Origin: a virus
Taxonomy: Duplodnaviria; Caudoviricetes
Reading direction: 5' to 3' (one strand)
DNA length: 27,018 bases
Virus record (IMG/VR): IMGVR_UViG_3300043120_000018
Location: 1-27,018 of that record
Shown piece by piece: positions 4,386 through 27,018 of the stretch. Numbering within the stretch: the stretch's first letter is position 1; each line of letters opens with the position of its first letter. The translations under genes were made by a program, and so were the position numbers. Under the pieces are notes generated by a model. It searched no databases. It saw only the letters and a program-made list of their open reading frames with translations, and had not been told where the DNA came from.

Positions 4386-7216
4386 AGTATTTTGCTCCAA
4401 TTAGCTGAAACAGAGTTACCAGCACCTTCTGCTCGTATATTAAAGCGTAGCTCTCTGAATATACCTACAGAATTATTCTTATTTAAATAATCAGCTTTAT
4501 TATTTATAAAAGTATAAATATAAGAGTCGGCTGGTGTATTTATAAGTTCTTCTCTTATAATATTATCAAAAGTATCTAATATTTGCAACCTATATTTTAA
4601 GTCAGTTACAGTAGTATCAATAGGATCCCAGGCAAGTTGCACAAAATTATTTATAAACCTATCAGTATATCCTGGTTCTAGATTAACTACCCTAAAATTA
4701 GGTACACCAGGAAGATAACTTGAGGGGTCCACATCTATAGTAATATAACGAGGAGCGCTAAAAGATCCTCTAGTAGAAACCGCTCGTATACCGAAAGTAT
4801 AAGTACCTATGGGTAAATTAACTATATTATAGTTCACTCTACCCTCAGTACTTGGCTTAGGAATCCTATCAGCACCTTCACTACCTTCCCAAAATATTAA
4901 ATAATAATCTACATCTTGTGATAGGCTAGGTAACCAACTAAGCTGCCCATTTACATTCTCCCCTGGTTCCTCTAATAAACTAGAAGGGGTGTATTGTATA
5001 TCTCTTACGGGTAACACAGCAGGTTCAATATTAGTATCCTGTTCGTTACTTATATCAGCCTGACCACTATTAATAAATACATCTTTAGGGTATTCTCTAA
5101 ACGTGGCCCTAATATTTCCGCTAGAATCAATTTCTATAGAATTTACTAAAAACTCTTTATTTACCCAAGAATATCTACTATAACTTAACGTTACATTATT
5201 ATTAGGTAATATTGCCCCAATATAGTAGTGCGGTAAAGTAACAGAGACATTTTTAGCAGACCTAGACTTTCTAAGCTCTCGCTCAGTTAAACTACGAGCA
5301 GTATAGTAATTAGTTATATAAGGAAATGAAAGATTTAATTTCTTCTCTACACCCCTATCCTCTTCTTTAAACTTAGAATTATAGAATGTTATAGATGTAG
5401 TTTGCCAAGATTTACCAGGATCCGCAATACTAGCATTTACTGTATTATACTTAGAATTTCCTGTTATATCATCCACCTTTACTGTGCTTTTTGCTTCCTT
5501 ATCCAAATCTATATGGTAAATAGGTTCATCATCACTTTCTACTTGTAAAATATATTTCCCACTATATTTTATTAGTGATCCTAATACCTGCCCTAACATG
5601 GAGCCAATATTTTTATGCACAGTCTGTTCTGTAGGAATAATACAGTTGGTTTGCATTATATGTCGATTCTCATTACCAGATATTCTTGGGTCTTTCCACC
5701 CTATATACCTCCAGAAAGGTACCCAATCCTGCTCATAACTAGTATCTAATAGATCGAATTTGGTAGCAACATCCTCCAAACTACTTAGAGAAAAATCGTT
5801 AGCCCCCAAAGACATACCATATCTAAAAGACCTTAGATAATCAAAAATCTGCCAAGCCATATTCGTGGAGGTGCTTACTCCTGGTATTATATTTCCATTT
5901 TTAACAGTATCTACTATTTTACCACAAACCTCGGCCTCTAGACTAGGTATAGCAGTGCGACCACCTTCTAAATCACTTAGTTTATAGTTAAAGATAACAT
6001 AAGCGGTATCTAATAATTTAAAACTAGAGTCCCAATATTCAGGCCCAATGTTATTTAAACTTTGTAGATAAAACTCACCTGCTGCAGCCTTATCAACTAG
6101 TACTTGAGCTGCAGATTGATTAGATTTTCCATGATAAGTCCAAAAACGAATTTCTCCCTGCCCATCATCTAGTATATACTCTCTACCGTGTTCCGAAGGA
6201 GCATCTCTATTAGCCCCTCCAGGCACTACCGAATTATTTATAGTATCACCGCGCACTTTCTTTCTACCAAAACAAACTCTTTGCTCATCATCAGTATCAT
6301 TTGTGCATATAATTGGGGCATCATCTAGATAGAAGTCATAAAATCCCTCTATCTCCCCCTCACAGATAGCATAAACAATCCAGACAGAGCTGGGATCATT
6401 TTTTTCGGTATCCGCAAAGATAGGAATTGCAGGTACTTTTTGTACCCCATAAACTACTGGAATAAACTTAGCTGATAGATCAAATCTAATATCTACTTCT
6501 TTGGTAACTATTTCAGTATATTCCTGCATTGAATAAGATTTCTTTAAACCAAACCACGAAGATTTTTTATTAAGTTTATATTTAGTTTCCTCTGTTTGGT
6601 ATTGTGCTAATATATTAGTTGTTTTATTAGCGTGGAAAAACCCTTTATCAGCAGCATACTCTGGCCTCTTGGTTGCTGCCGAAGGCATCCAAGTACCGTT
6701 TTCCACTGTTAAACCTCTATGAGCTGCATCATCTGTTATTCGTCCAACAACCTGTTGGAAGTCCTGAAAATGGTTAGCGCATTCCCATTCTACCACAGAG
6801 CTGTTTTTCAAACCAGTAGAGTTATCTGATATAGAAGAACCTGTAATTATGCCCTCAAATAATACAATCTCTTCTCCTATAACCTCCTCAGTGCTAGGAT
6901 CCATATATATTATAGAGATTTTTAATGTTTTATTTAGGAAAGATGAACCTCCCTCATCTAACGCAAGGTCAAGTTGTTCTTCATCCAGGCCACTCATGGA
7001 TACTTTGACCTTATGTGCGGTGAGATCTTTTGTGAATTTTATATTTTTCACCGAGTTGACCACATTAGTTTTATATTCTATCCCATTGTGGGTAATATCT
7101 CTGGAAAAATCCGTATAATACAAATATACTGGATTTCCAACTGTACTGGTAGGCCTCTCCAATCGTATAAGATATGCTTTCAGCACTTTACTATAGTTTT
7201 TTAAAATATTAATCAT
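4382..7216 (-). CDS. Baseplate hub protein (T5 pb3-like, with FNIII domains)
   Basis: 944 aa; motifs GRITDDAAHRGL, DKGFFHAN, IPVVYGVQKV, YAICEGEIEGF; C-terminal FNIII-like segments; lies between Dit and pb4. Confidence 0.92.
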   Translation of the reverse strand: MINILKNYSKVLKAYLIRLERPTSTVGNPVYLYYTDFSRDITHNGIEYKTNVVNSVKNIKFTKDLTAHKVKVSMSGLDEEQLDLALDEGGSSFLNKTLKISIIYMDPSTEEVIGEEIVLFEGIITGSSISDNSTGLKNSSVVEWECANHFQDFQQVVGRITDDAAHRGLTVENGTWMPSAATKRPEYAADKGFFHANKTTNILAQYQTEETKYKLNKKSSWFGLKKSYSMQEYTEIVTKEVDIRFDLSAKFIPVVYGVQKVPAIPIFADTEKNDPSSVWIVYAICEGEIEGFYDFYLDDAPIICTNDTDDEQRVCFGRKKVRGDTINNSVVPGGANRDAPSEHGREYILDDGQGEIRFWTYHGKSNQSAAQVLVDKAAAGEFYLQSLNNIGPEYWDSSFKLLDTAYVIFNYKLSDLEGGRTAIPSLEAEVCGKIVDTVKNGNIIPGVSTSTNMAWQIFDYLRSFRYGMSLGANDFSLSSLEDVATKFDLLDTSYEQDWVPFWRYIGWKDPRISGNENRHIMQTNCIIPTEQTVHKNIGSMLGQVLGSLIKYSGKYILQVESDDEPIYHIDLDKEAKSTVKVDDITGNSKYNTVNASIADPGKSWQTTSITFYNSKFKEEDRGVEKKLNLSFPYITNYYTARSLTERELRKSRSAKNVSVTLPHYYIGAILPNNNVTLSYSRYSWVNKEFLVNSIEIDSSGNIRATFREYPKDVFINSGQADISNEQDTNIEPAVLPVRDIQYTPSSLLEEPGENVNGQLSWLPSLSQDVDYYLIFWEGSEGADRIPKPSTEGRVNYNIVNLPIGTYTFGIRAVSTRGSFSAPRYITIDVDPSSYLPGVPNFRVVNLEPGYTDRFINNFVQLAWDPIDTTVTDLKYRLQILDTFDNIIREELINTPADSYIYTFINNKADYLNKNNSVGIFRELRFNIRAEGAGNSVSANWSKIL

Positions 7217-7829
7217 TTATTATTTCCTCAGAAAATTCTAATTCGAAGGAGGAGTAATAGTTATCCACCGTAAATGTGTCTGAAAACTCTTCTGGCCTCT
7301 CTGGTACCAAAGTAAATAATACTCCGTTAAACTGTACCTTCTCTGTACCAACTGTTTCTCTAACTAGATTTGGGAAAATAGTTAACTTAAGAGTAGTGTT
7401 AACCTTCTCTACACGCAGTATCTTATATACTTTAGTAGAATTACTTAATTTAAATACATCCCCTATAGTAGGTAACTGATTACTAGTATAATTAGTTATA
7501 TTAAGGGTATCCCCCTTCTGTCCCGCGGGGATTATCATACCGGTAGTATCAGAAGGTGCAGTATAAGATTGTAGATGAGGTATAAATACTTGAAAACGTT
7601 CGCCCCTATTTATACCTAAAAGATATTCTGAAATCAAAATATTATACTGTTCTTTGGTAAGGTCTTCATAGGACAAGGTTACGCCCCAATACTGTGCGGA
7701 TCCTTTCACAGTATATACCTTACCTCCAGGTAATCTTTCTCTATATTGCGGATCATTATTTTTTATTGGAGCTCTTACGAACCCAGGAGCTTTTGGATTA
7801 GTAAGAGGGTCAGGTAATCTTATTGCCAT
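7209..7829 (-). CDS. Distal tail protein Dit (T5 pb9-like)
   Basis: RLPDPLTNP...SAQYWG...IPAGQKG...GDVFKLS...KVYKI resembles T5 pb9; lies downstream of the tape measure gene. Confidence 0.92.
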   Translation of the reverse strand: MAIRLPDPLTNPKAPGFVRAPIKNNDPQYRERLPGGKVYTVKGSAQYWGVTLSYEDLTKEQYNILISEYLLGINRGERFQVFIPHLQSYTAPSDTTGMIIPAGQKGDTLNITNYTSNQLPTIGDVFKLSNSTKVYKILRVEKVNTTLKLTIFPNLVRETVGTEKVQFNGVLFTLVPERPEEFSDTFTVDNYYSSFELEFSEEIIND

Positions 7830-20431: not shown

Positions 20432-21757
20432 TTACCCGTTGTGTGAATAAATACCGTACCTCACAGCATCTGCTAGGTGAGAAAAAGCATCGTGTAAAGG
20501 GGTTTCTTTAATTAGATTTGGTTTTGGATCCCAACGGTAGTTAAGGAACATACCAATAACTCCAGAACACTGATGCCATACTTTTATCCTACCAGAAGCA
20601 ACTAGCGTAGCTATATGGCCTAGACCATCTGCCACACTCTTCCTAGCAGCGGCCGAAGATATATCATAGTCAACAGCTAAGTCCGCCCTAAATTGAGCAG
20701 CGGCTGAGTCAACAAATATATAATAAGGATCATATCTTTCCTCAAATTCACGAATAACAGCAGCATGTACAGAAGTAACAGTACTAGCTTCTTCATACTC
20801 TTCCATTATATAATAGGTATCTGTATCCTCATCATACTTGATAGCAACCATAGCTGTAGGGTCACGGAAACCTACGTCAATACCTAGAATTGATTCATAT
20901 TCTTCATTATCCATCAACCTGTTGTATAACTCTAAATCATCAAAGGTATTCTTTTCTATAGTAAACTCTTCGTAGATCTGTCCTTCGAAGGTTGCAAAGT
21001 CAGCCTCATACTCTTGCCTAAAGAATGCTGAAGTATTATTTTGTCTAGCCTCTTCGATATCAGATTCTGTTGCGCGAGGGTTATCTCTATATGTTCCATG
21101 TATAGAACACCAAGCACTTTGTGAAACTTTCTCACTATACCCACGCATATAGAAGTCGTAGAACCAGTTATTACCACGAGGAGTAGAAATAAACAGAGCC
21201 TTACTATTAGGCTTATCAAGAGTAGGTCGCAACTGGATGCTGAAAGCATCCCCACCGACGGGACTGATGGCGGCCTCATCAAATATAATCAAATCATAAG
21301 AACGACCAACAGCAGAGTCAGCCTGACTAGCAGAAGCCATCTTTATTAGAGTGCCATTAGATAGCTCTATCTCATTATCTTTAGCATTTTTACGTAAAGT
21401 CTCAATACCAAAATTTCTAATAAGATCATTAATTTGAGACCAACCAATCTTAGTAAGAGAATAGTTAGGACATACAATAAGTACTTTAGAATTTGGTTCT
21501 AGAGCCTTTAGAAACCCCAGAGTATATGCTATAAAAGATTTGCCCACACGTCTGGATACACAAGCAGTAACAAAACGTATATCAGGATGGTTAAGAGCAT
21601 TTATAATACCGATCTGAGGTTCGTTAGGTACAATAGGCCCGTGTGGTGTAATATCATCCAGTTGAAGTAAGTTTTCTACAGGGAAAGAGAAGAATCTCTT
21701 CTCTAGTCCATAATCTACTATCTCTTTAGTATTAATAAAATCTCTAGAAATTTTCAT
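20432..21757 (-). CDS. terL: Terminase large subunit
   Basis: Walker A SRRVGKS, Walker B LIIFDEAA, ISTPRG, RNase H-like GIDVGFRD, HLADAVRY. Confidence 0.97.
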   Translation of the reverse strand: MKISRDFINTKEIVDYGLEKRFFSFPVENLLQLDDITPHGPIVPNEPQIGIINALNHPDIRFVTACVSRRVGKSFIAYTLGFLKALEPNSKVLIVCPNYSLTKIGWSQINDLIRNFGIETLRKNAKDNEIELSNGTLIKMASASQADSAVGRSYDLIIFDEAAISPVGGDAFSIQLRPTLDKPNSKALFISTPRGNNWFYDFYMRGYSEKVSQSAWCSIHGTYRDNPRATESDIEEARQNNTSAFFRQEYEADFATFEGQIYEEFTIEKNTFDDLELYNRLMDNEEYESILGIDVGFRDPTAMVAIKYDEDTDTYYIMEEYEEASTVTSVHAAVIREFEERYDPYYIFVDSAAAQFRADLAVDYDISSAAARKSVADGLGHIATLVASGRIKVWHQCSGVIGMFLNYRWDPKPNLIKETPLHDAFSHLADAVRYGIYSHNG

Positions 21758-22260
21758 TATACACCCTTACCATTTACTAATCTGGACATAAGCTTATGCA
21801 TATTAGCATCTCCAGGCACATTATTAATATTAATCTGAGTGTTATTCTGAGTATTTGGGGCACCTGGTCTTAATACCTCAACCTTATGTTTTTCCAAAGC
21901 CATCTCTCTCTTAGTAACCATATCTAGAATCTTTTGATATTTATCTAATAGTTCTATGATATCTAATTCAGTTCCTAACCCAGACTCTTCTATTTCTTCT
22001 AGTTTTCTGTTTACTATCTCATCTAATACAGAGAATAGTCTATGTTTATTTCTAAAACCAGACTCCCTAAATACTTCTCTAGTATATTCTAGGACTTGTG
22101 GGGTATTCAATATTCTACGTACTTCTTGCTCGTCTATTTCTAGAGCAATGGCAGTCTTTTTAGGATCCATACCGTTAGTCAGATAGACTTCGGCAATCCT
22201 AAGCTGTTCCGGTGCAATTAATTCCGGCAACAGGGCATCATCAGGTACTAATTCATTCAT
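21757..22260 (-). CDS. terS: Terminase small subunit
   Basis: ATG at 22260 with SD GGAGGA; N-terminal HTH-like region, ESGFRNK motif, NTQININ tail; stop overlaps the TerL start. Confidence 0.85.
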   Translation of the reverse strand: MNELVPDDALLPELIAPEQLRIAEVYLTNGMDPKKTAIALEIDEQEVRRILNTPQVLEYTREVFRESGFRNKHRLFSVLDEIVNRKLEEIEESGLGTELDIIELLDKYQKILDMVTKREMALEKHKVEVLRPGAPNTQNNTQININNVPGDANMHKLMSRLVNGKGV

Positions 22261-22289
22261 AACATCCTCCAAAAGTTGTTTTATACCTA

Positions 22290-22319: not shown

Positions 22320-22455
22320 ACAATAATTAAAACACAATATCTAATATAAATGAAGAACTGTACTACATCTATATTAAAAAATTACTAGGCAAGGTGCATT
22401 ACTTATGATATTATTATTTAAAATATTATTTAATATAAAAACTATAAGGGGTTTT

Positions 22456-23603
22456 ATGAAATTAGATAAAAACGTAAGAGATGAATATGTATTAAATAAC
22501 TATCAAAAGTTAACAAACAAGCAACTAGCGGAAGATACTGGGTGGTCTGAAACCACAATAAAAGCAATTAAGCGAAGACTAGGGCTTGTTAAAAGTAAAG
22601 CTAATATAGAATTGAGAGAATTTATACTTAGTAATAAAGATACAGAACCTAGAGACATAGCCTTGACTCTTGGCATCAAAATAGATACTGTTATTGATAC
22701 ACTTAAATATCTAGGGTTGTACATACATCCCACGATAAAACGTATAAAGAAAGAACTAGAGGATAAATATATAGTAGAAGAAAGCAATATAGTAAATAAT
22801 AGAGATAAAGTAACATATACCTGCAAGAAATGTGGAGATACAAAATCTAGGGCAGCAAGATTTATTCTTCAAGATATTACACAAGGCAAGGGGGTTTTAT
22901 GTCAGTGTGAATCTGAATTAGAAGACTTTATTAAAGAAGAACTAGAACGTAAGAGAAAATATATTATTAAACAATATAATATGAGATTAAAAAATCCACA
23001 ATTCCTGGGGTTGTTAGATGATAATAAGTGTTTGGTTAGGTGTTTAAAGTGTGGAAATATTCATGAGATTAAATGCACTTCTTTTAAATCTAGAAAATCT
23101 CCGTCTTGTTCTAAGTGCCATTACGAGGATTTTAATAAGAAAGAATATTATATAAATGAAATAATATCTAGAGGGTAGACTCTCCATATATAAATTCAAA
23201 CACAACTATCAGAGTAAGGTGCAAGAATGGACATATCAGAGAGACAACACCATACAATATAGTAAAACATAAATGTAAATTTTGTGATAAAGAATTTCCA
23301 GAGTTTTCGTTTGTATACCTAATGGGTGTCGAATGTGGGCTTACAAAGATTGGAGTATCTACATCAGTGGGGCGCAGAGCACGAGAATTAGAATTGGAAA
23401 GTAGTTTAGGCATTCATACTATAATTATGGAGTCTCAGATGAAAACACGGGAAGCCTACAAATTAGAGAAAATATTACATACTAAATATAAAAAGTATAA
23501 TGAAAAACTGACAGATAAATTCGGAGGATATACGGAATATTTTAAATTGTCAGATACTGATATACAGGAAATTGTACATATTATGTCTAAAAACACTCCT
23601 TAG
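22456..23603 (+). pseudogene. Free-standing homing-type endonuclease (HTH + CxxC zinc-ribbon repeats + C-terminal T5orf172/GIY-YIG-like domain) split by a frameshift near 23172-23178
   Basis: ATG at 22456 (SD AAGGGG); first frame stops at TAG 23176-23178. The -1 frame from 23172 reads RVDSPYINSNTTIRVRCKNGH...CKFCD...FVYLMG...TKIGVS...LEKILH...GGYTEYF to 23603. Very AT-rich and on the opposite strand to its neighbours. Confidence 0.8.
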
Positions 23604-23677
23604 TTCGGATAATTTTCTTGTATAGACCGTCTGCGGTGGAGTTCCGCTTCGTTACAGAAATGTTAAGTCTTGTAACC

Positions 23678-23719
23678 GCCCTGTTAACAAAAAGTAAAAC
23701 AAATGTTAACAGGGCTTTT
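23678..23719. terminator. 12-bp perfect inverted repeat between convergent genes
   Basis: GCCCTGTTAACA (23678-23689) and TGTTAACAGGGC (23704-23715), followed by TTTT. Confidence 0.6.
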
Positions 23720-23757
23720 GTTACAAAAACTTTATAAGAATGTAAGCATAATTAACC

Positions 23758-24384
23758 TCATGCCGCCACCTCTAGATCACTTTCGAAAGCTTCGATCTGG
23801 TTTAATAGTCCCATCGCTTTAAACACGTCCCTATAATCCAGCGCATCTTCGATCCCTTCATTATAGCCCATATCATAAACGACCCGCAACAACTCATTAG
23901 TCTGGATAGCATCGTGACAAATAAAGCCCATTTCACGAGCAACTGCCAGTACTCCCCCATGGTCATCATATACCGAAAATTGAGCCATAACACCATAACG
24001 ATCTTGCAACCATTTGAACCAGTGCCTCTTATAGTCGGCATCCCCTAGGGAATAAATGCGCCTAGCCTCATCCGCATGGAAACGCTTAAATAATTGATCC
24101 CGACTACAAGTAAGGGCGGCTTTTAACCCATTTTGGCGCAAATAAATATAATCGCTTTTAGTCATTCTGCGGGCAGTTACAATCACCACTGGCGCGCCTG
24201 ATTTGATCAATGTTTGCATGACTGAGGCTAGCGGCAGCAGTTGATCTTGCATGATGTTTTCATGCGTTTGCTTGGCGCGATAGCTGCTCAAACATAGATC
24301 GCCATTCTCTTTGTATGGTGTCCTATGGTCGCTATCTATAACAGTTTTATCTAGATCAAAAATGCTTATATGTGTCTGTTTCAT
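23758..24384 (-). CDS. dmp: Deoxynucleoside-5'-monophosphatase (HAD family), T5 pre-early Dmp
   Basis: HAD motif FDLDKT; HENIMQDQLLPL, IVTAR, YDD; resembles T5 Dmp and lies next to A1. Confidence 0.9.
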   Translation of the reverse strand: MKQTHISIFDLDKTVIDSDHRTPYKENGDLCLSSYRAKQTHENIMQDQLLPLASVMQTLIKSGAPVVIVTARRMTKSDYIYLRQNGLKAALTCSRDQLFKRFHADEARRIYSLGDADYKRHWFKWLQDRYGVMAQFSVYDDHGGVLAVAREMGFICHDAIQTNELLRVVYDMGYNEGIEDALDYRDVFKAMGLLNQIEAFESDLEVAA

Positions 24385-24409
24385 TGTTTAAACTCCTTCA
24401 ATAAGGGAA

Positions 24410-24425
24410 TGTTTCACGTGGAACA
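24410..24425. promoter_or_regulatory. parS: parS (ParB/Spo0J binding) consensus site
   Basis: TGTTTCACGTGGAACA; the reverse complement TGTTCCACGTGAAACA fits the conserved chromosomal parS consensus TGTTNCACGTGAAACA. Intergenic. Confidence 0.8.
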
Positions 24426-24427
24426 AA

Positions 24428-24449
24428 CCGAGCCAGCGAACCAGCTCGG
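24428..24449. other. Short hairpin between A1 and parS
   Basis: CCGAGC-cagcgaacca-GCTCGG. Confidence 0.45.
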
Positions 24450-24464
24450 AATGTTAAAGTTTTG

Positions 24465-26135
24465 TTAAGCGGGGAACTCCTCCTTAAATAGCAATTGCTG
24501 AGCACCATTTGAAAAAATAATAGCATCTGCCTGTGCCCAGCTCGACGCGCCCAGCCTGTTATAGCCTTGATCCTTTCGTGCAGTTACTCCAGCGGTCACT
24601 ACGCGACCAATTAACGCCGGACTGTGGGTGTGACCAGTAGCCAGCACAGTACCCCACTTCGAAAAAAGTTTAGGACTACCAAAAGAGCCATTCTGACCCT
24701 TATGACCATGCTGTGACATCTCGCAGCCGTTTTGCACCTCTGACAAGTGACCCCGACCAAAGCGAATATTTTCGGCCAAAGGTTCAAGGCCGCTGAGTTG
24801 GCTTTCAAGCTGGATCGCCAGTTCAAGAGCGACGGCAGAATCCTGATCGCTGTCGATAGCTTCACACACTGCCCAGTTAATCAAATAGTAAAGTTTGGCG
24901 TTAACGGGATCCGTTTTAGGGCTGTAGGTCTTATCATCTAGCCAAACATCAAGCGCGGAATTATGGTTGGATTCGGTCACATAAACATCCGGCACGATTT
25001 GTGCCAGTTGGTTTAGTTGGCGGATAACCTGATTCAATTCATACAATACCGTTTGACCCTGCGCACTGTAAAGGTGCTTACCGCTGTGGCGGTTATGGTG
25101 TGAACGGCTCGAGAAATGCAAAACATCTTCGACCGCTACAAAATCAGGCCGGATCTGGCGCAGTAGTTGGATCGTGGTTTCCCAGCAATTGTGGTCAAAC
25201 ATCTCACAATGCAGATCCCCTAATTTCATGACACTAGGGCCATATGTATCGTGATAGATATCTCCTTGCGAGTCGGTCGGGATCACATATTCGATCCGGC
25301 CTTCGCGGTACTGTAAGTTAACAAATTGAGTCCCGCTGGCCGTCTTATAGACCACCAGACCACCAAAAGTGTGATCTGTTTCAGCCTCTGAGCCTGCGCG
25401 GCCTCTTATGTAGTTGTAGTCAGTACAAACACCAGTTGAAACACCCGCGCGGATCCCAGTATCGGGTAGCATTGGCATCATTTCCACTTGTTGTTTCGGG
25501 CTGGCTACAATGGTAAGGCCTTCACCGGAGTTGAGTTGTTTGGCAGCGTTAACAGGTAGCTTGGCGGTCGGCAAGATGGCAGCGTCAGCGGCTAGCTTGG
25601 CGGCGGTATTACTGAATAAGAAAGTATCTTGTAACAACAAATAATCTGCCAAAGCATCATCAAATCGCTCTGCTTCTGACTTTTTGACGGCGCTGAATGC
25701 GTTTTTATTGTAGTACACTGGCAGCACAACTAATCGAGCGCCAATGTTTTCAGCTACGCCTTTGAGGGCTTCCAAACATCCGGCATTAACTGTCGTATTG
25801 TTTTGCGCGGCAGTTATAACGAAAGCCTGACCATCTAAGATCGGCAGATCATCAAGGCGCGACTGTTGCTGTCCGATCATGGTATCGGCAGAAGGTTTTT
25901 TGATAGCTTGGCGGGTAGCAGTCTGTTTAACTGGCTTGTTATCTTGCAACCAGCTAACAAGATCGGCGGCCTCAAATTCACCAGTGAGGCCATGATCTTT
26001 CACCAACTCTGCCAGAATATCTTCAGCACATTCAAGGCGGGTATCGCGTTTGCGCTTGCTGTAGAAATTAAGATCGCTAGCAATAGCAATGGCGGCAGTA
26101 TGAAAAGCGGCGGCAGCGTTTGAGAATTTTCGCAT
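24465..26135 (-). CDS. A1: Pre-early protein A1 (metallophosphoesterase-fold nuclease; host DNA degradation and second-step transfer)
   Basis: 556 aa; motifs ITAAQNNT, GDLH, SRSHHN, ESNHN, HGH, GHTHSP; T5-like dmp-A1-A2 synteny. Confidence 0.92.
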   Translation of the reverse strand: MRKFSNAAAAFHTAAIAIASDLNFYSKRKRDTRLECAEDILAELVKDHGLTGEFEAADLVSWLQDNKPVKQTATRQAIKKPSADTMIGQQQSRLDDLPILDGQAFVITAAQNNTTVNAGCLEALKGVAENIGARLVVLPVYYNKNAFSAVKKSEAERFDDALADYLLLQDTFLFSNTAAKLAADAAILPTAKLPVNAAKQLNSGEGLTIVASPKQQVEMMPMLPDTGIRAGVSTGVCTDYNYIRGRAGSEAETDHTFGGLVVYKTASGTQFVNLQYREGRIEYVIPTDSQGDIYHDTYGPSVMKLGDLHCEMFDHNCWETTIQLLRQIRPDFVAVEDVLHFSSRSHHNRHSGKHLYSAQGQTVLYELNQVIRQLNQLAQIVPDVYVTESNHNSALDVWLDDKTYSPKTDPVNAKLYYLINWAVCEAIDSDQDSAVALELAIQLESQLSGLEPLAENIRFGRGHLSEVQNGCEMSQHGHKGQNGSFGSPKLFSKWGTVLATGHTHSPALIGRVVTAGVTARKDQGYNRLGASSWAQADAIIFSNGAQQLLFKEEFPA

Positions 26136-26162
26136 GTTTTAAACTCCTTATTTAAGGGATAA

Positions 26163-26207
26163 TGATATTCGCAAAAGGCACTCAATAGAATGCCTTTTAA
26201 GATATCA
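26163..26207 (-). other. Intergenic RNA stem-loop (RNase III-site-like or terminator)
   Basis: RNA: UGAUAUC-uu-AAAAGGCAUUC-uauu-GAGUGCCUUUU-gc-GAAUAUCA. Confidence 0.6.
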
Positions 26208-26208
26208 C

Positions 26209-26634
26209 TTAGCTTGCGGATACTTCGATCAAGGGCTGATCATCTTCAGTAGCATCCGAAAACTTGGCGTTGATAGCGTCCACCAACGACTCAAGGCCGG
26301 AAATATTGGCCTTATCGAGTGAATCGATCGCGTCAACCTCGATCCCCAATCCGGCAGCAATAGCGCGAACAAACTGAATTTTTGTTGGCCTGCTGCGAGT
26401 AGTAGCGGCTGGCTTTGGCTCCAGCGTGACGTAAATGCCATCGCGATTTAGCTTGCCTCGTATAGACTTACCGGAAACGGCGCCGATTTCGGTGGCAACC
26501 TCGTTTAAAAACGTGTCAGCGTTGGCGGCCTCGTTTCCGTCTGCTTCCAGCTTGGCAAGGTACAATTCAGCAGCTTTGGCAGCCAATTCAGCGTTCCACT
26601 TGAATTTTTTTGGGGTAGTGTTTTGCTTTTCCAT
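26209..26634 (-). CDS. A2: Pre-early DNA-binding protein A2
   Basis: KFKWNAE...ELY...AN...GAVSGKSIRGKL...KIQFVRAIA resembles recalled T5 A2; 141 aa. Confidence 0.88.
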   Translation of the reverse strand: MEKQNTTPKKFKWNAELAAKAAELYLAKLEADGNEAANADTFLNEVATEIGAVSGKSIRGKLNRDGIYVTLEPKPAATTRSRPTKIQFVRAIAAGLGIEVDAIDSLDKANISGLESLVDAINAKFSDATEDDQPLIEVSAS

Positions 26635-26679
26635 GATTCGGATCCTTTTAAAAAGTTAAATTAACTAGGGGCTAAGGAT

Positions 26680-26724
26680 TTAACCCGCAAAGGGCACTTT
26701 ATTCAAATGCCCTTAAAGAGTCAA
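26680..26724 (-). other. Second, related intergenic RNA stem-loop
   Basis: RNA: UUGACUC-uuu-AAGGGCAUUU-gaaua-AAGUGCCCUU-ugc-GGGUUAA. Confidence 0.6.
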
Positions 26725-26728
26725 CCGA

Positions 26729-27016
26729 TTAGCTTAGGTTCAGCTTGGCTTCCCGGACACTTAGAGCTATACAATACATTCCAGAATTTTTAATAAATTC
26801 CAGAATGGCTTTTGTAGCAGCATTCGGGTGTTTCCAATTAGCACCATTAAGCACCAGCAGATCAAATATGGTGCGCGGCTTCGGTGGCTGTTGCTTGTTG
26901 ACCTTCGCCATTTCTCGCCGCACAGCGGCGCGGTACTGGCGTAAATTTTCTTGGTCTTTCAAGCGATCACCTGTCAGGGCTGGCGGAAAGTTTTTCTTCC
27001 CAATCTTGAGATCGCG
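26729..27016 (-). CDS. Hypothetical basic pre-early protein, possibly 5'-truncated by the window edge
   Basis: The track starts at TTG 26962, but the frame stays open to the edge (RDLKIGKKNFPPALTGDRLKDQENLRQY...). Confidence 0.6.
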   Translation of the reverse strand, partial: RDLKIGKKNFPPALTGDRLKDQENLRQYRAAVRREMAKVNKQQPPKPRTIFDLLVLNGANWKHPNAATKAILEFIKNSGMYCIALSVREAKLNLS

Positions 27017-27018
27017 AT

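Follow-up and report, generated by a model that had tools for sequence, protein, structure and literature searches.

An orphan copy of a host centromere site stands on the DNA that a T5-like phage is predicted to inject first. It was found in a 27,018-nucleotide fragment of an uncultured virus of the Caudoviricetes (IMG/VR record IMGVR_UViG_3300043120_000018), called here the window, which means this stretch at its full length. The site is a perfect parS1, of the kind used by chromosomal ParABS systems, and it lies between the pre-early genes A1 and dmp, in a segment supported as the first-step-transfer terminal repeat of a T5-like phage. Such sites are found far beyond chance, are confined to the repeat and are kept by relatives in different spacers, while Vibrio phages of the family carry what, judged by its letters, is the version proper to their host lineage, either parS2 or natural parS1 variants. 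We consider it likely that this is an orphan, host-matched centromere on first-injected T5-like DNA, placed within a broader landing pad for host proteins. How the first 8% of the genome of T5-like phages moves, is protected and pauses with no phage protein is a decades-old question. Self-protection is called unclear (BF23; PMC10644984) and the host factor for the injection stop is called unsolved (Davison; 10.1101/866236). Named host candidates with exact sites are now available for first-step transfer.

A perfect parS1 site among the pre-early genes

Two features occupy the spacer in question:

24410-24425, palindromic, no strand assigned: perfect host-type parS1, TGTTCCACGTGAAACA, in the A1-dmp spacer
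24428-24449, minus strand: terminator-like hairpin after A1, directly before parS (fold of the whole spacer, z -1.9)

The preliminary description of this DNA had reported a parS site in the segment, and the match is exact and far beyond chance. It is the 16-bp chromosomal palindrome TGTTNCACGTGAAACA, the identical sequence being present in chromosomes, and it is the sole exact match in the window, with 1.4e-5 expected under an order-2 Markov model; exact search of the 23.6-kb late region found none. Among the strain differences listed (n=40), none falls within parS. In the relative L260 (A1 96% identical, 88% nucleotide identity) the site is kept letter for letter and the adjacent hairpin is rewritten. 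Two further relatives, G003 and G004 (terminase 70% identical), have parS just after dmp instead, with no second copy in their 86 and 47 kb of sequence, respectively. In the Vibrio phage phi 3 each repeat holds two parS1, one directly before dmp as in the window and one before A1, with none elsewhere in its 116 kb. JSF10 has sites in both of these places, each with a CATG core; parS1 variants of this form occur naturally close to parB in three genomes of Vibrionaceae, and of 19 records searched for it JSF10 alone matched. Loci L153 and L278 each carry one parS1, the latter 1.7 kb upstream of A1 and near DnaA boxes. The exact site is absent from 18 other named T5-like genomes; on the A1 tree, of which only a quick version was made, it appears at four places. 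Its pattern is present in 38 of 71 genomes sampled from the order of Vibrio in the GTDB taxonomy.

The distribution within genomes was surveyed by comparing the first 8 kb with the rest in 12 T5-like genomes, a fixed length shorter than some repeats and therefore conservative. Exact sites numbered 3 against 0 for parS1 and 14 against 0 for parS2. Letter-permuted palindromes reached at most 2 in the first 8 kb for parS1 (0 of 200 attained its count) and at most 1 for parS2 (0 of 59).

A scan of viral sequences for the parS1 pattern returned about 7,900 stretches, none of which, among the 134 loci listed, matched A1, A2 or dmp; a second viral scan yielded almost no new loci. Three phages unrelated to T5 stand out. 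The Pseudomonas phage phiPsa374 has exact parS only in its 526-bp terminal repeat (L499:390-403), the Roseobacter phage DSS3P8 has three exact sites near the ends of its record (842, 141134, 143178), and the Arthrobacter phage Bennie has them along its genome, at 23616, 34758 and 41830. These phages were chosen for matching parS, so that no rate can be derived from them; the sites near ends hint that borrowing of ParB could extend beyond the T5-like family.

The centromere version follows the host lineage

In the spacers of phi 3 a second palindrome, TTTACA-N-TGTAAA, was noticed. It is parS2, the centromere of Vibrio chromosome II, a 15-bp inverted repeat with the invariant half-site TGTAAA (PMC3688505), described as confined to vibrios and photobacteria (PMC3141006). 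Our scan of bacterial genomes agrees: loci with multiple matches were Vibrionaceae in seven of seven cases, among the 80 of 124 loci listed. Clusters of 8-11 copies occurred in all three Vibrionaceae genomes, nearly all on one contig, and one chromosomal copy stands about 100 nt before a parA-parB pair.

Among T5-like phages, parS2 is present in all eight named Vibrio phage genomes, with one to four copies per repeat, all of them in the A2-A1-dmp spacers. It was found in none of eight Enterobacterales phages, three Aeromonas phages, one Pseudoalteromonas phage and 12 further records. A survey of repeat motifs against host repertoire, which the preliminary description had called for, thus separates 8/8 Vibrio phages from 0/11 Enterobacterales or Aeromonas phages. 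Exact parS1 and parS2 were also absent from about 48 T5-type loci, some of which may overlap with the named records. A BLAST search with a phi 3 spacer matched 413 records, 348 of them Vibrio phages (individual matches unverified); Escherichia, Salmonella and Klebsiella do not appear among the ten commonest names. The quick A1 tree puts parS2 in three clades. E. coli and its relatives are not known to have chromosomal ParABS. The parS sites are thus unevenly spread along the genomes and linked to the host, and the terminal repeat includes the region that carries them.

The parS2 result makes the question of first-step transfer testable in cultured phage-host pairs, and the presence of parS1, parS2 or neither is suggested as a signal for predicting the hosts of uncultured T5-like phages. 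In the open literature, which was our scope (subscription papers, such as that on the T5 genome, lay outside it), no description was found of host parS in T5-like repeats, nor of the apparent matching of parS2 to the host.

The terminal repeat and its boundary

The segment carrying parS is bounded and filled as follows:

23627-27018, no strand: terminal repeat, the DNA of first-step transfer, with its left boundary placed at about 23,627-23,642 and its right part lying beyond the window end
23666-23680, minus strand: T5-family end motif GGCGGTTACAAGACT, conserved, likely a packaging or end signal
21757-22272, minus strand: terminase small subunit gene (terS; phrog_3802, E 1.8e-44), the last late gene ahead of the repeat
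23758-24384, minus strand: dmp, deoxynucleoside-5'-monophosphatase, pre-early (phrog_415, E 7.5e-23; 36-48% identity to annotated dmp genes)
24465-26135, minus strand: A1, DNA transfer protein (phrog_1745, E 2.7e-136; named after the T5 annotation)
26209-26634, minus strand: A2, DNA-binding protein, pre-early (phrog_1725, E 1.1e-21)
26729-27016, minus strand: pre-early open reading frame (ORF) truncated by the window end, with no family match

The suggestion that this is the DNA T5-like phages inject first holds on three counts: the dmp/A1/A2 cluster stands beside the terminase genes, the end motif is present, and the depth of sequencing doubles over a long direct terminal repeat that contains all three genes. 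Depth was read from contigs, not raw reads, which places the step only within about 23,600-23,720. In run X1, which could be the sample of origin, it is 19.4 up to 23,683 and 38.2-42.9 from 23,654; in X3 it passes from 168-250 to about 430-710, and in X6, which belongs to another study, from 18 to about 44. The doubling is less clear in X2, X4 and X5 (in X2 a single junction-spanning contig has the intermediate depth 56.7), and X12 covers too little of the unique side to judge it. In X1 and X2 a loose end at window position 23689 belongs to a second, commoner T5-like phage with an end array of the L149/L154 type.

T5, phi 3, Cilsick, VspSw_1 and most T5-type loci share the end motif, which in all of them stands close to the end of the genome. 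Because it stands 24-39 nt from the end of those relatives' records that stop there, the boundary falls at about 23,627-23,642, within the interval of 23,620-23,650 proposed earlier; the distance from dmp to the record end, 124 nt in T5 and 133 nt in phi 3, agrees with it. L260 carries the repeat about 2.7 kb further than the window, and this extension holds four DnaA matches, in keeping with the injection-stop region of T5-like repeats, which would lie outside the window. By analogy with T5, injection of the window phage would proceed in two steps and depend on A1 and A2; for A1, the T5 annotation gives roles in degradation of host DNA and in second-step transfer.

GC content and GATC sites

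The earlier claim of an abrupt GC rise near 23,620 survives as to the rise, from 0.369 on the left to 0.467 on the right, and fails as to its place and meaning. The change-point that fits best lies at 23,755, where dmp ends, so that the composition step does not mark the start of the repeat. The rise occurs at third and first codon positions (GC3 0.479 vs 0.264; GC2 0.393 vs 0.417), and the 377 bases of non-coding DNA in the repeat show none, with a GC of 0.371. Since non-coding GC is unchanged and codon positions alone rise, we attribute the step to codon usage; the change-point and the flat non-coding GC together rule it out as the repeat boundary. An endonuclease-like gene with 30% GC just ahead of the repeat (22405-23603) makes the step look sharper. 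Pre-early genes may have host-like codon use because they would be translated ahead of the phage tRNAs, the genes for which lie outside the repeat (11 in G003, 22 in G001), a matter separate from parS. Avoidance of silencing of the H-NS type is an alternative cause.

The density of GATC reported in the segment is borne out:

23775-27013, no strand: GATC-dense segment with 34 sites, 33 of them coding, and no CCWGG (motif counts)

There are 34 sites in 23,620-27,018 (10.0/kb) against 48 in 1-23,619 (2.0/kb; binomial p 5.8e-11), and no equally long window of the late region holds more than 11. A1 has 17 sites, where synonymous-codon shuffling gives 10.5 +/- 1.9 and reaches 17 in 0 of 1000 shuffles; the excess in dmp and A2 is weak by the same measure (p 0.043 and 0.066). 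It is not a trait of the family. Among 17 other A1 genes, six show an excess (L149, L003, L004, phi 3, L202 and L155) and five a deficit (p<0.05). The first 3 kb of the 12 genomes are GATC-rich in four (G003, G001, phi 3, AhSzw-1), nearly devoid of the motif in four (Cilsick, pVp-1, VspSw_1, My1) and neutral in four (T5, 70E34-6, phiKp_27, PR1), which rules out a family-wide excess. Pre-early GATC density is in fact bimodal: the first 4 kb hold no GATC at all in some lineages (Cilsick, pVp-1, VspSw_1), and others (G003, G001, phi 3, AhSzw-1) reach 6-23 per kb. Across its 114 kb VspSw_1 has only 6 GATC.

A phage-encoded Dam methylase was rejected as the cause, as PF02086 had no match in any of 16 genomes or fragments (a positive control matched in 6 of 14). 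Virion DNA of T5 and BF23 is reported without Dam marks (PMC10644984). GATC sites would then enter unmethylated, be marked by host Dam and could recruit SeqA. The excess is a lineage-specific extra that most likely offers a target to host Dam and SeqA.

The repeat has no CCWGG (0 in 23628-27018 against 28 in the rest of the window), and in the pooled counts of relatives the motif occurs at 0.31-fold, G003 and AhSzw-1 being exceptions. Avoidance of restriction sites in first-step DNA is known, and the scarcity of CCWGG agrees with it.

A phased array at the DNA end

Two further features recall the sites of response regulators:

23650-23724, plus strand: phased TGTTAA-like array with 10-11 bp spacing, in the direct-repeat layout of ArcA sites; the core doubles as a hairpin after dmp, formed by a 12-bp inverted repeat
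24452-24468, plus strand: exact TGTTAA pair at 11-bp spacing, of weak conservation, overlapping the stop codon of A1

Both agree with the phased, response-regulator-like boxes described earlier. Six elements start at 23,650, 23,661, 23,671, 23,682, 23,693 and 23,704 (spacing 11, 10, 11, 11, 11) and run to 23,709, which satisfies the layout of at least two TGTTA-cored repeats at 11-bp spacing seen in multi-repeat ArcA sites. On a weighted score of our own for four repeats the array reaches 28.6, the next site 24.0 and eight shuffles at most 25.6. The end of G003 has arrays scoring 33.0 and 30.1, and the phase is kept in L155 and L260; no array was found in T5, phi 3, Cilsick, AhSzw-1, PR1 or the end of G001. 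Loose contig ends from X4, X5 and X6 show a pair like that at 24,452, which L260 has lost. The absence of these signals from the late region was rightly noted before, in that neither parS nor an exact TGTTAA pair occurs in its 23.6 kb and GATC is at 2.0/kb there. A promoter scan gave a weak promoter-like match (9 of 12) overlapping the array.

The array shares bases with the conserved end motif and is predicted to form a strong hairpin, and a role as terminator or packaging signal is a live rival to a predicted binding site. More broadly, the palindromes and repeats of this DNA might serve phage proteins, such as A2 or terminase, or RNA hairpins, their likeness to host motifs being incidental. 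A2 is indeed a DNA-binding protein and T5 repeats are described as palindrome-rich (10.1101/866236). As an account of the whole we rate this as highly improbable: two unrelated host centromere motifs, together with their natural variants, track the host lineage, and permuted palindromes do not. Its chances differ by element. For parS it is very unlikely; for the end array it is a possibility of some substance, if not the one we would put first.

Elsewhere in the family a Fur-like box overlaps the end motif or lies just inside it (phi 3, Cilsick, VspSw_1, L158, L150, L165 and many T5-type loci), and the window lineage has its TGTTAA array in that place. In L158 and L150 the Fur-like box is separate from the end motif, which suggests turnover.

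Other host motifs and the idea of a chromosome mimic

The survey of 12 genomes covered further motifs, whose definitions, apart from those of DnaA, ArcA and the parS2 half-site, we take to be the usual ones. Counts in the first 8 kb and in the rest were:

TGTTAA pair (exact): 8 and 0
strict DnaA box: 38 and 20
Fur-like: 45 and 28
LexA: 13 and 5
sigma-54-like: 22 and 4
CRP-like: 16 and 28
matS (one mismatch): 3 and 4
KOPS: 9 and 53
Chi: 11 and 58
IHF: 9 and 95

Permuted controls in the first 8 kb reached at most 2 for LexA and at most 9 for DnaA, and did not reach the counts of Fur, CRP or the TGTTAA pair either. The margin for Chi (11 against a maximum of 10 in 167 permutations) is narrow and is not counted as support; matS fails its control, its count of 5 being reached by 14 of 59 permutations. 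IHF is 1.2-fold in repeats, and KOPS and Chi are about twofold; sigma-54, KOPS and IHF are given without a permuted control. In 23,620-27,018 of the window there is no match to matS, DnaA, Chi, KOPS, IHF, CRP, SlmA, Ter or dif, and its late region has two matches to DnaA, three to KOPS and four to IHF. Beyond the window, the repeat of L260 has DnaA, Fur-like and LexA boxes, and its DnaA-box kilobase is free of GATC. Several of the strongest repeat-confined motifs (Fur, LexA, CRP, sigma-54) are sites of transcription regulators, not of nucleoid or segregation proteins.

These data bear on the proposal of the preliminary description that the segment mimics the host chromosome through a cis-encoded system that needs no phage protein and loads host nucleoid and segregation factors. 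Part of it stands: host-type sites are present in the repeat, they follow the host repertoire, and no ParB gene was found in the phage genomes searched. That GC, GATC, parS and phased boxes form one system resembling the host chromosome, above all its origin region, is another matter, and we hold it to be very unlikely. To be sure, parS, GATC excess and an ArcA-like array occur together in the window, L260 and G003, DnaA boxes lie deeper in L260 and G003, and CCWGG is avoided. One chromosome-mimic system is nevertheless not supported because the GC step is codon usage, GATC excess is lineage-specific, matS fails its control and IHF is flat. The signals vary independently, with parS2 lacking GATC in Cilsick and pVp-1 and GATC lacking parS in AhSzw-1 and G001; and with no Dam gene in 16 genomes and virion DNA unmethylated in T5 and BF23, GATC would enter in a state unlike that of host DNA. 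Nor does the segment look like an oriC-type origin (no DnaA or IHF match in 23,620-27,018, one GATC in 377 nt of non-coding DNA) or like a general chromosome mimic, for which matS, KOPS, Chi and a host-like GC outside codons were looked for.

Two side observations concern the other motifs. A near-consensus LexA (SOS) box stands beside the DnaA boxes in most T5-like repeats: T5 st0 at 6213 and 9411, phi 3 at 7229, Cilsick at 282, L260:809-824, and also 70E34-6, G001 and G003. A marine clade (L261, L264, L267, L269, L275, L279) has the order dmp-A1-A2 toward the end, and its repeats hold up to about ten sigma-54-like motifs, many Fur-like boxes, GATC-rich genes and no parS.

What host ParB might do on entering DNA

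The predicted parS sites would very probably be bound by host ParB. No partition protein of phage origin came to light: there was no ParB_N match in five phage genomes, no match to a ParB2-type protein in five, and no ParB match in G003 (76% complete), G001, phi 3, Cilsick, pVp-1 or VspSw_1. The window likewise shows no self-contained ParABS cassette, there being no ParB family among the ORFs scanned, with the qualification that parA was not searched separately and that a window of 27 kb leaves most of the genome unseen. It is established for ParB that parS by itself is sufficient for loading and for spreading. ParB2 spreads from a single parS2 and silences promoters up to about 1 kb away (PMC3688505).

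That these sites have a role at DNA entry is the reading we moderately favour. The DNA would enter with the end array first (20-100 nt from the end), followed by dmp, parS (at about 780 nt), A1 and A2, and then a DnaA/Fur/LexA cluster at 5.4-6 kb, a position taken from L260. The start of the repeat would act as a landing pad, where host ParB loads at parS among the pre-early genes and spreads from it, tethering and coating the entering DNA, a picture to which we give somewhat better than even credence. ParB on the first 1-3 kb could couple this DNA to host ParA and the nucleoid, bring the A1 and dmp genes near RNA polymerase and host DNA, and shield them while the remaining genome waits in the capsid. 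The end array may bind a regulator of the ArcA type, with Fur-like boxes perhaps filling the same place in other lineages, and the DnaA, LexA and Fur boxes further in may be part of the injection-stop region. A bolder version, which we rate as less likely than not, has the host centromere machinery hijacked outright: host-matched parS would load ParB clamps, which would let ParA reel the DNA onto the nucleoid and would act as ratchet and shield, ArcA or Fur would protect the free end from RecBCD by capping it, and transfer would be halted by the DnaA, LexA and Fur boxes. On this view the whole programme of first-step transfer would be laid down in the DNA alone, with host proteins to carry it out.

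The sites could act later instead. Their task might be the positioning or partition of phage genomes that replicate or lie dormant, or the titration of host ParB once copies are many, the repeat only doubling the dose. This rival is unlikely in our judgement. The repeat is on every genome copy, Bennie has parS away from its ends, the parS1 pattern is widespread among viruses, as said above, and about 20 extra parS2 copies disturb replication of the chromosome-II type (PMC3141006). Titration at entry is itself unlikely, ten extra copies being without effect (PMC3141006). What speaks for entry is that no exact parS lies outside the first 8 kb in the 12 T5-like genomes, a confinement that a late role would not require.

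The other rival is transcriptional, and improbable: spreading of ParB from parS would damp A1 and dmp, or shut them off, after the first burst. All parS1 and parS2 sites in named T5-like genomes do lie in spacers around these two genes, and ParB2 spreading silences nearby promoters, as said above. Yet lineages differ in where the site stands (upstream of A1, between the two genes or after dmp), the promoter scan found no sigma-70-like site at 24,410, and the parS1 of L278, at 1.7 kb upstream of A1, stands near DnaA boxes.

Several observations weigh against a role at entry, or against the landing pad built around it. There is no parS in T5, in other Enterobacterales phages, in Aeromonas phages or in G001, G002 and L150, which makes it dispensable in many relatives. 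The eight Enterobacterales-type rows form one clade on the quick A1 tree, so that the absence there is close to one observation. The host-matching holds for relatives only. The repeat is also present on replicating genomes, where the sites could act, and the three parS of Bennie are spread along its genome, not placed at an end. As to the other signals, Cilsick, pVp-1 and VspSw_1 lack GATC throughout their first 4 kb; the end array is confined to the lineage of the window and doubles as a strong hairpin (z -4.4), and Cilsick reaches a four-repeat score of 27.4 outside its repeat; the Fur pattern was shaped after viewing phage ends, which makes its enrichment partly circular.

Relation to known systems

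The closest counterpart is the first-step-transfer repeat of T5 itself, which the window resembles in having dmp, A1 and A2 next to terS, the same end motif, doubled depth and, deeper in (L260), DnaA boxes. By contrast, T5 lacks both parS and an excess of GATC. The presence of DnaA boxes in the stop region of T5, with a model in which they bind the host protein, is already published (10.1101/866236). Davison's host-DnaA model is akin to our proposal in placing a host protein on first-injected DNA; it differs in location, since the sites of the window belong to the end that enters and to the pre-early gene region and not to the stop signal. The available text of that work contains no occurrence of parS, GATC, SeqA, ParB, ArcA, Fur or LexA.

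With chromosomal ParABS (parS1, and parS2 in Vibrionaceae) the window shares the exact consensus, its variant being present in chromosomes of the GTDB order of Vibrio. Unlike them, the phage site is an orphan on a genome of lytic type, where neither parA nor parB turned up (parA having had no search of its own), and phages have one to five sites in the pre-early gene cluster, not around an origin. Plasmids and plasmid-like prophages (P1, N15, the parABS of actinobacteriophages) have their own ParA and ParB and a private parS. They resemble the window in carrying, on a mobile element, a parS that a ParB clamp can bind; in the window the site is that of the host and the proteins would be borrowed. 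The end array, finally, is like the multiple direct-repeat sites of ArcA, TGTTA-cored, 11 bp centre to centre and up to six in a row (PMC4173790), and unlike them in standing at a phage DNA end, where it overlaps a packaging-type motif and a hairpin with no regulated promoter identified; binding of ArcA to it is putative.

Gene content and occurrence of the window phage

Bases 1-22,272 of the window carry tail, head and terminase genes on the minus strand. Phage genes, together with contigs of X2, X6 and X12 that span the junction, rule out that the contig is chimeric or that this is DNA of a host. T5 has a receptor-binding gene at a place where the window shows none; between terS and the repeat the window holds:

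22405-23603, plus strand: homing-endonuclease-like gene in two ORFs, AT-rich (30% GC), with a T5orf172 domain in the second

The two ORFs are in different frames, with the split near 23,178. The closest cultured phages are distant (A1 at most 47% identical, capsid protein 61% identical), and searches with capsid, terminase and tail genes led to distant named phages only; one with the tail tip gave four unnamed proteins. DNA of the window was found in metagenomes from shale gas, the subsurface and sludge.

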